This document shows positions 5,312-18,635 of a DNA stretch of 44,513 nucleotides, piece after piece (the first letter of the stretch is position 1; each line of letters begins with the position of its first letter). The position numbers and the translations under genes were made by a program. Origin of the DNA: a virus (lineage: Duplodnaviria; Heunggongvirae; Uroviricota; Caudoviricetes). The notes beneath the pieces were generated by a model that was not told where the DNA came from, ran no database searches, and saw nothing but the letters and a program-made list of their open reading frames with translations. The stretch is from IMG/VR virus record IMGVR_UViG_2703718788_000013. One strand, 5' to 3'.

Positions 5312-5369
5312 AAAAAGGGCGGCAGAGCAGTCACGGAGTAAAACTGATACCGCCAAACGCCACCAGAAA
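5312..5369 (-). ncRNA. dicF: DicF-like small RNA (ftsZ translation inhibitor family) with intrinsic terminator
   Basis: Minus-strand sequence TTTTCTGGTGGCGTTTGGCGGTATCAGTTTTACTCCGTGACTGCTCTGCCGCCCTTTTT matches the remembered E. coli DicF sequence with one mismatch; GGCGG...CCGCC stem then U-run; no ORF in the region. Confidence 0.7.
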
Positions 5370-11775: not shown

Positions 11776-11986
11776 TTTCATATTGGCGAGGTAACGGTAG
11801 TTAAGTAGAATGGCTGTGGGTGCTTGAGGCTATCTGCCTCGGGCATGAACACCAACGGCAGATAGAGAAAAGCCCCAGTTAACATTACGCGTCCTGCAAG
11901 ACGCTTAACATTAATCTGAGGCCAATTTCATGCTAGACACATGTAGGTTAGCCTCTTACGTGCCGAAAGGCAAGGAGAAGCAGGCT

Positions 11987-12142
11987 ATGAAGCAGCAAAA
12001 GGCGATGTTAATCGCCCTGATCGTCATCTGTTTAACCGTCATAGTGACGGCACTGGTAACGAGGAAAGACCTCTGCGAGGTACGAATCCGAACCGACCAG
12101 ACGGAGGTCGCTGTCTTCACAGCTTACGAACCTGAGGAGTAA
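11987..12142 (+). CDS. hok: Hok/Gef-family type I toxin
   Basis: 51-aa product MKQQKAMLIALIVICLTVIVTALVTRKDLCEVRIRTDQTEVAVFTAYEPEE, near-identical to remembered HokD/RelF; AAGGAGAAG ribosome-binding site; 8-bp hairpin at 12151-12170. Confidence 0.85.
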   Translation: MKQQKAMLIALIVICLTVIVTALVTRKDLCEVRIRTDQTEVAVFTAYEPEE

Positions 12143-13645: not shown

Positions 13646-14011
13646 ATGACTGAACGCATAGAATTTGTTTTGCCTTACCCGCCGACGGTGAATACTTACT
13701 GGCGACGTCGTGGCAACACATATTTTGTATCAAAAGTCGGTGAGCGTTATCGCCGTGATGTGGCGCTAATTGTTCGCCAGCAGCGGCTGAAATTAAACCT
13801 GTCCGGAAGGCTGGCGATAAAGATTATTGCAGAGCCACCGGATAAGCGCCGTCGTGACCTGGACAATATCCTGAAAGCACCACTGGATGCGCTGACGCAT
13901 GCCGGACTTCTCATAGACGACGAGCAGTTTGATGAAATCAATATTGTGCGCGGTCAGCTCGTTCCTGGTGGGCGGCTGGGGATAAAAATCACAGAACTGG
14001 AGTGCGCATGA
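13646..14011 (+). CDS. rusA: RusA-family Holliday junction resolvase
   Basis: 121 aa; conserved RRRDLDN region and size match RusA. Confidence 0.85.
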   Translation: MTERIEFVLPYPPTVNTYWRRRGNTYFVSKVGERYRRDVALIVRQQRLKLNLSGRLAIKIIAEPPDKRRRDLDNILKAPLDALTHAGLLIDDEQFDEINIVRGQLVPGGRLGIKITELECA

Positions 14012-14697
14012 ATAGCCAGTATTTACAGTTTGTGCGTGAGCAGCTCATTATCGCCACCGCTGATTTGAGTGGGGCAACAAAAGGTCAGCTTGAAGCCTGG
14101 CAGGAGAATGCCATGTTCGATACAGGGCGTTACAGGCGTAAAAAAATCCGGTACCGGGATGAGGTGACTGGAAAAATGATAACGCGGGATAATCCACCAA
14201 TCCCGGGAAAACAATCACTGGCGAAGGGGACGTCAATTCCTCTGGTCAGTCCGGTTGAGTTTTCGACATCATCGTGGCGGCGGGCTGTTCTGTCTCTTGA
14301 AGAACATCATAAAGCCTGGTTGTTGTGGTGTTACAGCGGGAATATTTGTTGGGAATATCAGATCGCGATAACACAGTGGGCGTGGAATGAATTTAATACT
14401 CAATCCGGTACCAGAAAAATTGCAGGGAAAACGCAGGAACGCCTGAAAAAATTAATCTGGCTGGCGGCGCAGGCAGTAAAAGCAGAACTTTTGGGTGGGG
14501 AAGGTTATGAATACCAGGAGCTGGCATTACTGGCGGGAGTGACAACTAAAAACTGGTCCAAAACATTTACTCGTCACTGGGTTGCAATGAAACACATTTT
14601 TTACCGACTGGATAGTGAGGCTTTATTGTTTGTAATGAGAACACGTTCAAAACAAAAGGCGGCATTTTCAAAGCAAAGTGTTGCAAAAGTAGATTGA
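14008..14697 (+). CDS. Late-gene antiterminator Q-like protein
   Basis: 229 aa; overlaps rusA stop (ATGA); immediately upstream of a promoter-plus-terminator unit of the PR'/tR' type. Confidence 0.7.
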   Translation: MNSQYLQFVREQLIIATADLSGATKGQLEAWQENAMFDTGRYRRKKIRYRDEVTGKMITRDNPPIPGKQSLAKGTSIPLVSPVEFSTSSWRRAVLSLEEHHKAWLLWCYSGNICWEYQIAITQWAWNEFNTQSGTRKIAGKTQERLKKLIWLAAQAVKAELLGGEGYEYQELALLAGVTTKNWSKTFTRHWVAMKHIFYRLDSEALLFVMRTRSKQKAAFSKQSVAKVD

Positions 14698-14709
14698 AAG
14701 GCATATATT
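14681..14709 (+). promoter_or_regulatory. PR'-like late promoter
   Basis: -35 TTGCAA at 14681-14686, 17-bp spacer, -10 TATATT at 14704-14709, at the 3' end of Q. Confidence 0.5.
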
Positions 14710-14762
14710 TCATGCAAATCTGATATTTTGCCGATTTTGTACGTGATGGCAAAAGCAAACAA

Positions 14763-14788
14763 AACCCGCCCACAAGCGGGTTTTTTTG
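14763..14788 (+). terminator. tR'-like intrinsic terminator
   Basis: CCCGC CCACAA GCGGG hairpin followed by TTTTTTT, about 55 nt downstream of the PR'-like -10. Confidence 0.75.
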
Positions 14789-14869
14789 TGCCACTTATCT
14801 CGGATAGACATGGTGAATGCGCTGGTGGAGGAAGTAAGGGTGATTTTTAATCAGGTGATTTTTGAATGC

Positions 14870-14898
14870 TTGCAACATTGATTTCGTAACGTTATTAT
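14870..14898 (+). promoter_or_regulatory. Sigma70-type promoter for the tRNA array
   Basis: -35 TTGCAA at 14870-14875, 17-bp spacer, -10 TATTAT at 14893-14898, ending 9 nt before tRNA 1. Confidence 0.5.
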
Positions 14899-14907
14899 CC
14901 TGCACCC

Positions 14908-14983
14908 GGCCCTTTAGCTCAGTGGTGAGAGCGAGCGACTCATAATCGCCAGGTCGCTGGTTCAAATCCAGCAAGGGCCACCA
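14908..14983 (+). tRNA. tRNA with CAT anticodon, ileX-like (tRNA-Ile2 or Met)
   Basis: 76-nt cloverleaf, acceptor GGCCCTT/AAGGGCC, anticodon loop CTCATAA, CCA end; resembles remembered E. coli ileX. Confidence 0.8.
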
Positions 14984-14984
14984 A

Positions 14985-15061
14985 CCGCCACTAGCTCATC
15001 AGGAAAGAGCGTCAACCCTTTAAGTTGAGTGTGCGAGGTTCGAGTCCCCGGTGGCGGTCCA
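14985..15061 (+). tRNA. tRNA-like gene, apparent anticodon TTT (Lys-like), non-canonical features
   Basis: Acceptor CCGCCAC/GTGGCGG, anticodon stem TCAAC/GTTGA, loop CCTTTAA (C at position 33), T-loop TTCGAGT, CCA end; A-C mismatch in T-stem. Confidence 0.55.
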
Positions 15062-15063
15062 GT

Positions 15064-15139
<76 letters not shown>

Positions 15140-15142
15140 TAT

Positions 15143-15217
<75 letters not shown>

Positions 15218-15380
15218 GTATTTATCTGCATATTTCCTTTTGAGTCCCGTTTTGTTAGAGGTATTGGGCTGTTGACGGGGCTGATATCCACTCTCCACCT
15301 TTCAGGGAGATAGGATTTAAGGAGCCAACCGGTTAGAGTCTGCTTTGTTCCTAACCAGTTGGTTATGTTATTTGAGATGG

Positions 15381-15944
15381 TTAGTTTTTATTCGCCGTCC
15401 ATTTACCACAAATTGGTCTGGAGAAGATTGCCAGAATGGCAATAAAGGATATTTCAATTGAAACAGACCAGCATATATGTCCAATCAGTTCGCTCCAGAA
15501 TTCATAGCCGTTTAGATTCCATAGCCACCCTCTTTCATGGCCGGGAAGATACGCGGGAAATCTGAAGCCCAGCGCGGGTATTAAAATACCATGCATGACT
15601 AATGTAATAAGAATTCCATATACAGCCCCATACCACATGCGGACTCGTGGAATAAAAACAGACAGGTATATGTATACAAAGGCAAAAATGAAACTAAAAA
15701 GCCAATGATAGAGCATAACAGCTCCGGGAATTGTTACTCCCTGGTAAATGTAATCCAGCGAGTGTGAATTTATTCCCAGAAAACCCAACCAGGCGTCGAT
15801 ATTCATTGCTGGTGGAGAAATTTCTCCGGCCATTCTTGGGGGCATGTTAGCTTCAGTTCCTGATTTCACCAGAGAGCTGATCGCGCCACCGACCAGTGTT
15901 GCCCAAAGTATGATTTTTAGATTTACGCTATTCCATTTACACAT
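15381..15944 (-). CDS. YagU-like inner membrane protein (DUF1440 family), moron
   Basis: ORF-track 15381..16223; ATG at 15944 (MCKWNSVNLKIILWATLVGG) has GAGG 7 nt upstream; several hydrophobic segments; ELIGHICWSVSIEI resembles the YagU motif; antisense to late transcription. Confidence 0.65.
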   Translation of the reverse strand: MCKWNSVNLKIILWATLVGGAISSLVKSGTEANMPPRMAGEISPPAMNIDAWLGFLGINSHSLDYIYQGVTIPGAVMLYHWLFSFIFAFVYIYLSVFIPRVRMWYGAVYGILITLVMHGILIPALGFRFPAYLPGHERGWLWNLNGYEFWSELIGHICWSVSIEISFIAILAIFSRPICGKWTANKN

Positions 15945-16228
15945 AAACAACCTCTTGTTTGTTGGGTTGGGGTTATCATACATGACTGCTTGTTGCGATT
16001 TTGTATCGCAATGTTTCTGTTTGTTGTCTTTTGTGTTGTTTGTCTCTTTAGTGTTCTGTGTGTGACTATGTACATTCTGTATAGTGGGGGCTCCCGTTGG
16101 TGCAGAGAATAACGAAATCTGAAAATAACCGTTTTCAGTTGTGGCGCTCGCAACAAAAGCGCATGCTGACTGTGCGAAGATAATCTCGCTGTGACGAGTA
16201 ATCTCGAACGTCATTGTTTTCATTTATG

Positions 16229-16255
16229 CCAGCTACCCAAAGCTGGCTTTTTTTG
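16229..16255 (+). terminator. Intrinsic terminator-like hairpin upstream of lysis cassette
   Basis: GCCAGCT ACCCAA AGCTGGC followed by TTTTTTT; further weaker hairpin/T-run elements at 16496-16518 and near 16598-16620. Confidence 0.55.
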
Positions 16256-16659
16256 AGGTCTGCTCCGGCAGGCTTTTTTTATTCCGGCATATATAACTAT
16301 GGAGTATTGCGACAACCTGATAAAAGTCTGCATATCGCGATCCAACGGTAGAAGCGATAAACGGGCTGAGCGATATGTTTCCAGAGGAGAAGAGGTTGAG
16401 CGATACGAAGAAACAGCTAAGTATATTAAGAGAATGTTAATGTGCTTCATTGCTGATCAGAAGCTATCGGGATAATCATCAGTTTTTTGTATTGAGGCTC
16501 GCTACGGCGGGCCTTTTTCACATCCGCGTCACGCCCGGCGCACATCACATCAGATAACGCTATACAAAAGGCATCTTCGGGTGCCTTTGATGGGGGGGCG
16601 GGCCGCTGGTGGCTTTTTTTGTTTCCATTACACAGCCCCCGCATCTGCGAGGTGGGGTT

Positions 16660-16875
16660 ATGAAATCCATGGATAAGTTAACAACGGGTGTCGCCTATGG
16701 CACCTCAGCAGGTAGTGCCGGGTACTGGTTTTTACAGTTGCTCGATAAAGTCACGCCCTCACAGTGGGCGGCAATAGGTGTGCTGGGTAGTCTGGTATTT
16801 GGCTTGCTGACGTATCTGACAAACCTTTATTTCAAGATTAAAGAAGATAAGCGTAAGGCTGCGAGAGGTGAATAA
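16660..16875 (+). CDS. Class II holin (phage 21 S-type pinholin)
   Basis: 71 aa MKSMDKL... with dual-start motif and two hydrophobic segments; very similar to remembered S21. Confidence 0.9.
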
Positions 16876-17372
16876 TGTCGCCATCATTACGCAAGGCTGT
16901 TGCTGCTGCTATTGGTGGTGGGGCTGTTGCCATAGCGTCTGTGCTCATCACTGGTCCGAGTGGTGACGATGGTCTGGAAGGTGTCAGCTACATACCATAC
17001 AAAGATATCGTTGGCGTATGGACTGTATGTCACGGACACACCGGAAAAGACATCATTCCCGGTAAAACGTATACCGAAGCAGAATGCAAAGCCCTCCTGA
17101 ATAAAGACCTTGCCACGGTCGCCAGACAAATTAACCCGTACATCAAAGTCGATATACCGGAAACAACGCGCGGCGCTCTTTACTCGTTCGTTTACAACGT
17201 GGGTGCTGGTAATTTCAGAACATCGACGCTTCTTCGCAAAATAAACCAGGGCGATATCAAAGGCGCATGTGATCAGCTACGGCGCTGGACATACGCTGGC
17301 GGTAAGCAATGGAAAGGGCTGATGACTCGCCGTGAGATTGAGCGTGAAGTCTGTTTATGGGGGCAACAATGA
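16875..17372 (+). CDS. SAR endolysin (lysozyme with N-terminal signal-anchor-release domain)
   Basis: 165 aa; N-terminus [23 protein letters not shown]; start overlaps holin stop (TAATG). Confidence 0.9.
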
Positions 17373-17836
17373 GCAGAGTTACCGCGATTATCTCCACACT
17401 GGTTATCTGCATCATCGTCTGCCTGTCGTTGGCGGTCAATCATTACCGTGATAATGCCATCGCCTACAAAGAACAGCGTGATAAAAAAGTCAGTGAGCTG
17501 AAGCAGGCGATCGCCACCATCGCTGACATGCAGCAGCGTCAGCGTGATGTTGCTGCGCTAGATGCAAAGTACTTGAGAGAATTAGCCAATGCGAAAGCTG
17601 AAAATGAAACTCTGCGCGCTGATGTTGCCGCTGGTCGTAAGCGCCTGCGGGTCAATGCCAGTTGCTCCGCAGCCGTGCGTGAGGCCACCGGCCCCACCCG
17701 CGTGGATAATGCAACCAGCCCCCGACTGGCAGACACCGCTGAGCGGGATTATTTCACCCTCAGAGAACGGCTGATGACAATGCAAAAGCAACTGGAAGGG
17801 GCACAGGAATATATCCGTACCCAGTGTATACCGTGA
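17369..17836 (+). CDS. Rz-like inner-membrane spanin
   Basis: ATG at 17369 overlapping endolysin stop; N-terminal transmembrane segment then coiled-coil-like sequence. Confidence 0.85.
17589..17774 (+). CDS. Rz1-like outer-membrane lipoprotein spanin, embedded in Rz in the +1 frame
   Basis: 61 aa with lipobox VVSAC and proline-rich mature part; entirely inside Rz. Confidence 0.85.
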
Positions 17837-18180
17837 TGTTTTGTTATAAAGGTGTTGATGGTTGTGTTAGGGGGGATTTAACAAAAAGCCAGTTCCGGAC
17901 TTTATAGTGTGCTCAGATCATGGCCAAAAACGATTTCTGTGATAAATATTTTGAATATTATTTACAGGTAAATGACGTGGGTCGCATGAATGAAAATATT
18001 ACAATAGAGTATTAAGTATATGTTCATATTGTATGGGCTGAGAAGGCAAAACACGGTAATTCCTTATGTTGCTATGATACTTGATTGGCAGAATAGTTAT
18101 TTGGTCTTGAGTATATAGTCAGCGTTTTTTGTTCAGTAATAGTTCTTTCAGTAAAAAACAATAAATAGCGTGATTATTTC

Positions 18181-18238
18181 TGTTTGTTATTTATATTTTT
18201 GTTTGTTGTTTATATTTTTGTTTGTTGTTTTATTGTCT
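18181..18238. repeat. Three tandem copies of a roughly 19-bp T-rich repeat upstream of the PerC-like gene
   Basis: TGTTTGTTATTTATATTTT / TGTTTGTTGTTTATATTTT / TGTTTGTTGTTTTATTG in an AT-rich intergenic region. Confidence 0.6.
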
Positions 18239-18320
18239 TTCTGTGGAGGGGGGAGTATTGTTCCCTTATTAAGGGCAGGTAAATTTAGAATGGTAATCTG
18301 TAGATAATTGGAGGTCACTT

Positions 18321-18635
18321 ATGCTACATGATCACCTGGCTGAATGTCTGGAGAAAAAAGGACTGTACCGGAGAGCGGCTGAACGATGGGCAAAAGTGAT
18401 GGTACAGCTAAGTGATGATCAGAAAAGAAAAATCGCGGCACAGAAACGAGCAGAGTGTTTGCGTAAGGCGCGCCGGACTTCGGTTGCACCGGTGAATCTG
18501 ACAGAAATAAAGCAAGCGGTCAACAGACTACATTCTGAGTTGGGAATGGGATTTGAAGAGCGGCGGATATTCCGACGATATAAAGGGACAGGAGAACAGA
18601 ATACGTCCGGAAACGCGCGGTCAAAAAAATGCTAA
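18321..18635 (+). CDS. PerC-family transcriptional regulator (Pch-like)
   Basis: 104 aa; GGAGG 7 nt upstream; N-terminal ...LEKKGLYRRAAERW... matches remembered PerC/Pch pattern. Confidence 0.6.
   Translation: MLHDHLAECLEKKGLYRRAAERWAKVMVQLSDDQKRKIAAQKRAECLRKARRTSVAPVNLTEIKQAVNRLHSELGMGFEERRIFRRYKGTGEQNTSGNARSKKC

Follow-up and report, generated by a model that had tools for sequence, protein, structure and literature searches.

A DUF1440/YagU-family cargo gene antisense between the tRNA array and the lysis genes of a lambdoid prophage of Escherichia coli

The 44,513-nt sequence IMGVR_UViG_2703718788_000013, hereafter the window, is a lambda-like (lambdoid) prophage of Escherichia coli. It is 99.9% identical to a prophage of E. 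coli 377323_2f, which is integrated beside tRNA-Ser and mtfA. Sequence comparison identifies an inserted cargo ("moron") cassette directly 3' of the tRNA array, in the interval between the antiterminator gene Q and the lysis genes. The cassette carries a single gene on the minus strand for a membrane protein of the DUF1440/YagU family. The explanation favoured for the region as a whole, with moderate confidence, is a cargo cassette for an inner-membrane protein of a short DUF1440 subfamily, which would be expressed in the lysogen and have a probable role in envelope stress.

The cargo cassette and its protein

The cassette comprises the following features.

15220..16105, minus strand: cargo cassette with the DUF1440 gene, about 0.85-0.9 kb, with a well-conserved core from 15220 to about 16055
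15381..15944, minus strand: coding sequence of the 187-aa DUF1440/YagU-family inner-membrane protein, stop codon included
15951..15956, minus strand: Shine-Dalgarno sequence AAGAGG, 6 nt 5' of the ATG, read from the sequence
15980..15975, minus strand: -10-like hexamer TATGAT, the best candidate for a promoter of the cassette's own; no matching -35 and weak by position weight matrix (PWM), function putative
15993..16011, no strand assigned: palindrome TTGCGAT-TTTGT-ATCGCAA, exact in the window
16012..16070, minus strand: A/C-rich tract by base composition, GT-rich on the plus strand
15325..15362, minus strand: 13-bp hairpin, 19 nt 3' of the stop codon (-18.2 kcal/mol, z -4.1, 0 of 200 shuffles as good)
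15282..15319, minus strand: imperfect inverted repeat that folds, the weaker of the two 3' hairpins

E. coli SM107 harbors the same Q gene and tRNA Ile/Lys/Thr/Gly array, and the cassette is absent. Similarity to the window ends right after tRNA-Gly and restarts at the ribosome-binding site of the holin gene, with 292 unrelated nt in between. Because SM107, otherwise matching, goes from tRNA-Gly straight to the holin, the region is inserted cargo. The left edge of the variable region is the 3' end of the tRNA array; on the right, backbone homology begins at 16106 in the E9 prophage. The coding sequence has a GC content of 42.6% and the upstream tract of 38%, compared with 50.4% for the window. 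An earlier first-pass annotation, made from the letters alone, had proposed a moron in a low-GC segment, and both the empty site in SM107 and the base composition bear this out. Its placement of the gene also holds: the tRNAs (14908-15217) and the holin gene (from 16660) flank it on the plus strand, and the gene lies antisense inside the late region, between Q with its promoter- and terminator-like sites pR' and tR' and the lysis genes.

The cassette is 96-100% identical to 15 other copies. A query of Q and the tRNA array was matched over at least 80% in 322 of 5426 complete E. coli genomes, while the cassette is present in two of them. Public assemblies of E. coli and E. albertii contain the identical protein in about 600 indexed blocks. 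The layout of Q, antisense DUF1440 gene, holin, lysozyme, Rz, PerC and terminase was found in all ten places inspected. The gene has been kept intact, judging from the identical protein in these assembly blocks and from the presence of all residues invariant in its subfamily (49 of 49). In a phage collection, five records contained a relative, all less than 34% identical.

The list of open reading frames (ORFs) holds a single open frame on the minus strand, 15381-16223. The true start is the ATG at 15944, since the homologues of 183-188 aa begin there, AAGAGG is located six bases 5' of it, RefSeq annotates 187 aa, and the extension is broken by a stop codon in a second E. coli copy. Some automatic gene callers start the protein at 16223, which yields 280 aa. 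The frame is open from this position and such 280-aa calls exist in public collections, but the start of the homologues and the stop codon in the second copy led to the rejection of this product, which is very improbable. That the extension is open in the window is due solely to the pronounced scarcity of T, a base needed by every stop codon, on the minus strand.

The 187-aa protein matches Pfam DUF1440 with 130 bits (cut-off 34.7, E 8e-38) over profile positions 2-135 of 135; no NCBIfam model matches it. The AF2 model (pLDDT 87, pTM 0.83) contains long helices at residues 6-31, 74-97, 103-124 and 146-173, and a short helix and a beta-hairpin in the first loop. Family match and model agree with the DUF1440/YagU-like membrane protein proposed at first, and a four-helix polytopic inner-membrane protein is predicted. 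A C-in topology has been published for K-12 YagU. Together with the distribution of positive charges, it predicts both ends of the window protein to be cytoplasmic. Many of the 49 invariant residues are His, Glu, Asp or Arg, and occupy loops and ends of helices with a predicted periplasmic exposure. H80, H118, E148, E152 and H156 are among the invariant positions. Foldseek found no viral model similar to it at E 0.001 or better, and no match came from a profile search against PDB sequences.

Such an architecture is familiar, and the gene is phage cargo of an ordinary kind. In prophage DLP12 of E. coli K-12, nmpC (minus strand) lies antisense between quuD and essD-rrrD-rzpD (both plus strand), in the same slot and the same orientation as the cargo gene; the arrangement is therefore not new. 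The lysis cassette of the window is 89.5% identical to essD-rrrD-rzpD, and the junction is at the same point, just 5' of the holin ribosome-binding site. Both cargo genes encode envelope proteins, although nmpC specifies an outer-membrane porin and the window gene a predicted four-helix inner-membrane protein. The Q proteins of the two prophages belong to different families, and the tRNA array between Q and cargo belongs to the window prophage. The lc porin gene of phage PA-2 is related to the nmpC case. In Shiga-toxin phages, the cargo gene stx is preceded by Q, pR'/tR' and a tRNA array and followed by the lysis genes, as in the window. It is encoded in sense orientation and expressed mainly by Q-dependent late transcription on induction, whereas the antisense orientation of the window gene predicts the opposite, an expression in the lysogen only.

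Relation to YagU and to the short DUF1440 subfamily

YagU of E. coli K-12 is located in the inner membrane, is induced by acid and is required for full survival at pH 2. The gene is induced about 16-fold by acid and responds to the external, not the cytoplasmic, pH. A yagU knockout showed a three-fold lower survival at pH 2, 19% versus 70% (PMC1626474, PMC2270276). The link between YagU and acid tolerance from which the first-pass annotation argued is thus real and published. The mechanism of YagU/DUF1440 proteins was described as still unclear in 2025 (PMC12871917). A literature search found no paper on a prophage-borne YagU.

A similarity to YagU had been predicted for the window protein. 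The family assignment stood, as K-12 YagU and the window protein both belong to Pfam DUF1440, whereas close kinship did not, the two being only 30% identical. K-12 YagU has 204 aa; relative to it, the first loop of the window protein is shorter by about 24 residues and the third is longer by about 10. The motifs K..E...PPR, H..FS, H...P and E..SE..GH..W..SIE align in both proteins. The regions upstream of the two genes are unrelated. The yagU gene is a chromosomal core gene of K-12 type in 4926 of the 5426 genomes, while the cargo gene is prophage-borne in two of 5426. From these counts, the prophage gene would usually be an additional, divergent yagU paralogue in its host. An identity as orthologue of K-12 YagU was rejected on the grounds of the low identity, the two indels and the closest relatives, which form a separate subfamily of 183-188 aa.

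These nearest relatives are 63-81% identical to the window protein over the full length and share the 49 invariant residues. Short-form DUF1440 proteins occur in Cedecea, Yokenella, Photobacterium, Erwinia, Klebsiella michiganensis, Providencia and others, and the window gene is a true member of the same subfamily. Most of the genes are chromosomal, plasmid-borne or adjacent to insertion sequence (IS) elements in variable contexts, and none has a studied function. The distribution over Gamma-, Beta- and Alphaproteobacteria is patchy. Contexts include IS elements, a ParAB plasmid-like contig, plasmids, and fimbrial, metal-transport or PAP2 genes as neighbours. By these comparisons, the subfamily is horizontally mobile. 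Clustering of the neighbouring ORFs in 80 species-representative loci detected no conserved partner outside a Gilliamella group with a common gene order. Phage genes were nearby in two of the 80 loci, the subfamily being mostly chromosomal.

Metal-related neighbours were observed in single genomes: NikR/MgtE in Klebsiella, PAP2 in Vibrio and, in Photobacterium, Feo as well as a Zur-type box with cobW/dksA-like genes. A function in metal metabolism as a clue from these neighbours was rejected, as the single cases allow no generalisation. In Photobacterium angustum (L024:4770-4800) a perfect Zur-box-like palindrome, TTATTGTTATGTTATAACATAACAATAA, is located in the divergent region beside the DUF1440 homologue. 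The operon facing the homologue comprises gamma-carbonic-anhydrase-like, cobW and dksA-like genes. A zinc link is possible for this homologue; it was not seen in other genomes.

A scan of viral contigs yielded seven loci. Four are copies of the window's cassette and three are other prophages without nucleotide similarity to the window. In these three, a DUF1440 gene for a protein 65-67% identical lies directly downstream of Q and on the same strand, and Q belongs to a different Pfam family (Antiterm). In L020, the best-resolved of them, holin, endolysin and Rz lie downstream of the DUF1440 gene. A Providencia alcalifaciens prophage is identical to one of the three. L021, also among the three, has between a split Q and Rz, in this order, the short DUF1440 gene, a 119-aa ORF, an HdeA/HdeB-family gene (E 1e-19), a second DUF1440 gene and a BOF-family (YgiW-like) gene. 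The second DUF1440 protein has 173 aa and is 36% identical to K-12 YagU. HdeA and HdeB are periplasmic chaperones of acid stress. The interval resembles a cargo island for acid stress that occupies the lysis slot of a decaying prophage, and the HdeA-family and BOF neighbours are one new, suggestive item tying prophage-borne DUF1440 to acid or envelope stress. The locus (L021:295-5694, IMG/VR UViG_2852079565_000004) is related to the Moellerella wisconsensis locus L077 and has no holin or endolysin gene between Q and Rz.

The gene is antisense in the slot of Escherichia prophages and sense in that of Providencia/Moellerella-type prophages. Tentatively, and at a likelihood well short of even, short-form DUF1440 may be a mobile envelope/acid-stress module, captured repeatedly by lambdoid prophages of different Enterobacterales into the same slot between Q and the lysis genes. 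If this applies, such prophages would give their hosts a measurable acid tolerance during gut passage, and would provide a natural gain-of-function system for the uncharacterised YagU family.

Upstream DNA, expression and rival explanations

The first-pass annotation described a long CA-rich leader on the minus strand with a palindrome inside. The composition was confirmed: the minus strand of 16012-16070 consists of 59% A, 25% C, 10% G and 5% T, and ranks in the top 0.1% of 60-nt windows. The interpretation as a leader was not. In the two most divergent copies of the cassette, similarity collapses upstream of about 16056. If the cassette has a promoter of its own, it should thus be found no more than about 110 nt from the ATG. 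Tract and palindrome would then be located upstream of the transcription start and not in a long leader. The sequence TGTATGAT sits 29-30 nt 5' of the ATG in the window and in the Cedecea/Enterobacter homologues; apart from this, the upstream DNA of these homologues is unrelated. In several more homologues from Enterobacterales, a TATAAT-like hexamer is found 25-45 nt upstream. A TATAAT upstream of the Photobacterium gene, at first aligned with TATGAT, was dropped since it overlaps the start codon of that gene. The A/C-rich tract and the palindrome are probably promoter-upstream DNA that travelled with the cassette, because homology is lost near 16056 and the tract lies upstream of the sole conserved -10-like hexamer, which is about 30 nt 5' of the ATG.

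The palindrome is present exactly as first described, but it has no special status. Perfect 7-bp palindromes with loops of 3-8 nt occur 50 times in the window (about 1.1 per kb), and a mismatch in one arm makes this one imperfect in 11 of 16 cassette copies. A role as operator was rejected, since no second copy was found anywhere in the window, the immunity region included, with three mismatches allowed, and the element is not conserved. A terminator scan flags 15991-16013 plus TTTCTGTTTG as terminator-like on the plus strand, with a fold z of -3.2 on the plus and -1.6 on the minus strand. A common variant at 16009 keeps the pairing of a plus-strand RNA (G-C to G-U) and breaks that of the minus strand, and the tract, C-rich and G-poor, resembles a Rho loading site. 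These features would suit a different reading, in which palindrome and GT-rich flank form a plus-strand terminator for polymerase not modified by Q, and the CA-rich minus-strand tract is a real long regulatory leader, e.g. a loading site for Rho or Hfq. However, the stem has only three G-C pairs (-9.2 kcal/mol), one base change is no evidence of covariation, and palindromes of this size are found about once per kb. The end of cassette homology also speaks against a long leader, and the PWM scan detected no promoter-like site upstream of the tract on the minus strand. The combined reading is unlikely; the palindrome as a weak plus-strand terminator is a minor alternative.

At the 3' end, the inverted repeat noted earlier (15282-15319) exists and folds, while the stronger hairpin at 15325-15362 had been missed. 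The latter is conserved, and its plus-strand side is followed by a U-rich run. It probably marks or stabilises the 3' end of the mRNA.

According to the favoured reading of a lysogen-expressed cargo gene, transcription in the lysogen would start from a weak or activator-dependent promoter of the cassette's own within about 110 nt of the ATG. With TATGAT as the -10 candidate, the leader would measure roughly 25 nt, and the 13-bp hairpin would form the end of the transcript. After induction, Q-modified RNA polymerase from pR' would pass tR', the tRNAs and the downstream terminators, cross the gene head-on and presumably silence it. Given this head-on late transcription, the gene is therefore proposed to be active in the lysogen only. 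The protein most likely would guard the envelope under acid or related periplasmic stress, possibly by means of the invariant His/Glu/Asp/Arg residues, a cluster with a predicted periplasmic orientation. The acid-tolerance idea draws on distant homology and one suggestive gene association. For the lysogenic conversion that the first-pass annotation suggested as a possibility, the HdeA-family and BOF genes in the corresponding slot of L021 offer indirect support.

Several findings weigh against this reading. K-12 YagU (b0287), the sole studied member of the family, shares 30% identity with the window protein and is separated from it by two large indels; as the window protein belongs to another subfamily, the acid phenotype of YagU is not simply transferable. 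A K-12-type yagU is already present in 91% of the complete E. coli genomes (4926/5426), which weakens the case for a contribution by the prophage gene. The HdeA association is confined to a single, apparently degraded prophage, L021. On the minus strand, neither a consensus scan nor a PWM scan of 15900-16320 revealed a good sigma-70 promoter. The highest PWM score was 5.6, versus a mean best score of 6.7 in random windows of the same length, and TATGAT at 15980-15975 has no -35 element. Neither 3' hairpin is followed by a U-tract on the minus (coding) strand.

The lack of a convincing promoter and of a canonical terminator would also be expected of a silent or neutral passenger that is kept by linkage to a successful prophage and contributes nothing measurable. 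The gene lies head-on to late transcription and downstream of a promoter-like site of the tRNA array, which could yield antisense RNA even in the lysogen. Moreover, the integrase is frameshifted in the record of the near-identical prophage, which suggests that the prophage may be degrading. Such a passenger is rather unlikely. Many prophage cargo genes for small inner-membrane proteins act in exclusion or defence, and the window gene might likewise serve the phage, e.g. in superinfection exclusion or anti-phage defence, and not be a host stress factor. Its stable linkage to one prophage family across many assemblies fits such a role, as do chromosomal contexts that offer no functional clue. 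PADLOC, on the other hand, contains no family matching the protein at E 0.01 or better, and the only PHROG match, phrog_25162, is a family of unknown function. The mostly chromosomal location of the subfamily, with phage genes near two of 80 species-representative loci, and the rare carriage by phages, with the five distant records of the phage collection, also argue against a phage-serving protein, which is held to be quite unlikely.

Expression in lysogens together with a gain in acid or envelope-stress tolerance would make the gene another case of prophage-borne fitness cargo of E. coli and E. albertii, in a slot that also holds stx and nmpC, and a clean genetic entry point to the YagU/DUF1440 family. 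Without expression, it would simply add to the annotated hypothetical cargo genes.

Layout of the late region and neighbouring elements

The cassette is embedded in the following features of the late region.

14002..14697, plus strand: antiterminator gene Q, start of the late region (Pfam Phage_antiter_Q, E 7e-92; annotated as Q in the near-identical record)
14681..14709, plus strand: pR'-like promoter TTGCAA-17-TATATT overlapping the end of Q; found by consensus scan, function suggested by position
14761..14787, plus strand: tR'-like intrinsic terminator AAAACCCGCCCACAAGCGGGTTTTTTT with a T7 run (sequence and terminator scan; fold of 14716-14795 with z -3.4)
14870..14898, plus strand: second promoter-like site TTGCAA-17-TATTAT directly 5' of the tRNA array; found by consensus scan, function putative
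14908..15217, plus strand: tRNA array with CAT anticodon, Lys, Thr and Gly (ARAGORN, Rfam, RefSeq annotation)
16106..16290, plus strand: backbone segment with two tandem terminators, 16228-16247 and 16255-16276 (homology to other prophages; terminator scan)
16291..16536, plus strand: small variable insert, second in the interval, that contains a terminator-like hairpin and a 58-aa ORF (16299-16475)
16537..16648, plus strand: backbone segment with more plus-strand terminators, immediately 5' of the holin gene
16660..17836, plus strand: lysis cassette of P21-type holin (from 16660), lysozyme and Rz (Pfam Phage_holin_2_1; annotation; homology to DLP12)

The interval 15220-16648 is a mosaic of the cassette, the backbone segment 16106-16290 and further backbone at 16537-16648. 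Several plus-strand terminators were detected within 16228-16615 by the terminator scan. The segment 16106-16290 is 90% identical in other E. coli prophages, where it is located between tRNA and holin. It comprises 185 non-coding nt without an Rfam match, and may function as a block of terminators or represent a small RNA not yet described. Rfam searched over 15218-16660 gave no match at gathering scores; at E up to 1, the sole match was a weak sub-threshold rsmX at 16417-16517, outside the cassette.

The tRNA with CAT anticodon is called Met by ARAGORN and Ile in RefSeq. The phage tRNA-Thr and tRNA-Gly (15064-15217) are 99.4% identical to a chromosomal cluster annotated Tyr/Thr/Gly in many of the E. 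coli records listed, which points to copying of part of the phage array from host DNA. Between pR' and tR', a short transcript is predicted (14716-14790, about 70 nt, with a strong terminator at its end); it has weak sub-threshold Rfam matches to IsrK (E 0.035) and IsrJ (E 0.09), two RNAs of Salmonella prophages.

A gene for a PerC-family regulator is located 3' of the lysis genes (18321-18635, Pfam E 1e-42) in a region of 30-35% GC. In its 5' region (18170-18240), a GT-rich unit of 19 nt, TTATATTTTTGTTTGTTGT, occurs two to three times in tandem. This tract is the sole one in the window that is more GT-skewed than the tract upstream of the DUF1440 gene, and the motif TGTTTGTTGT is common to both. 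Rfam also identified the DicF RNA at 5317-5368 on the minus strand (76 bits) and the sok antitoxin RNA beside a hokD-type toxin gene at 11818-11992 on the plus strand. DicF and sok/hokD-type genes are ordinary for this prophage family.
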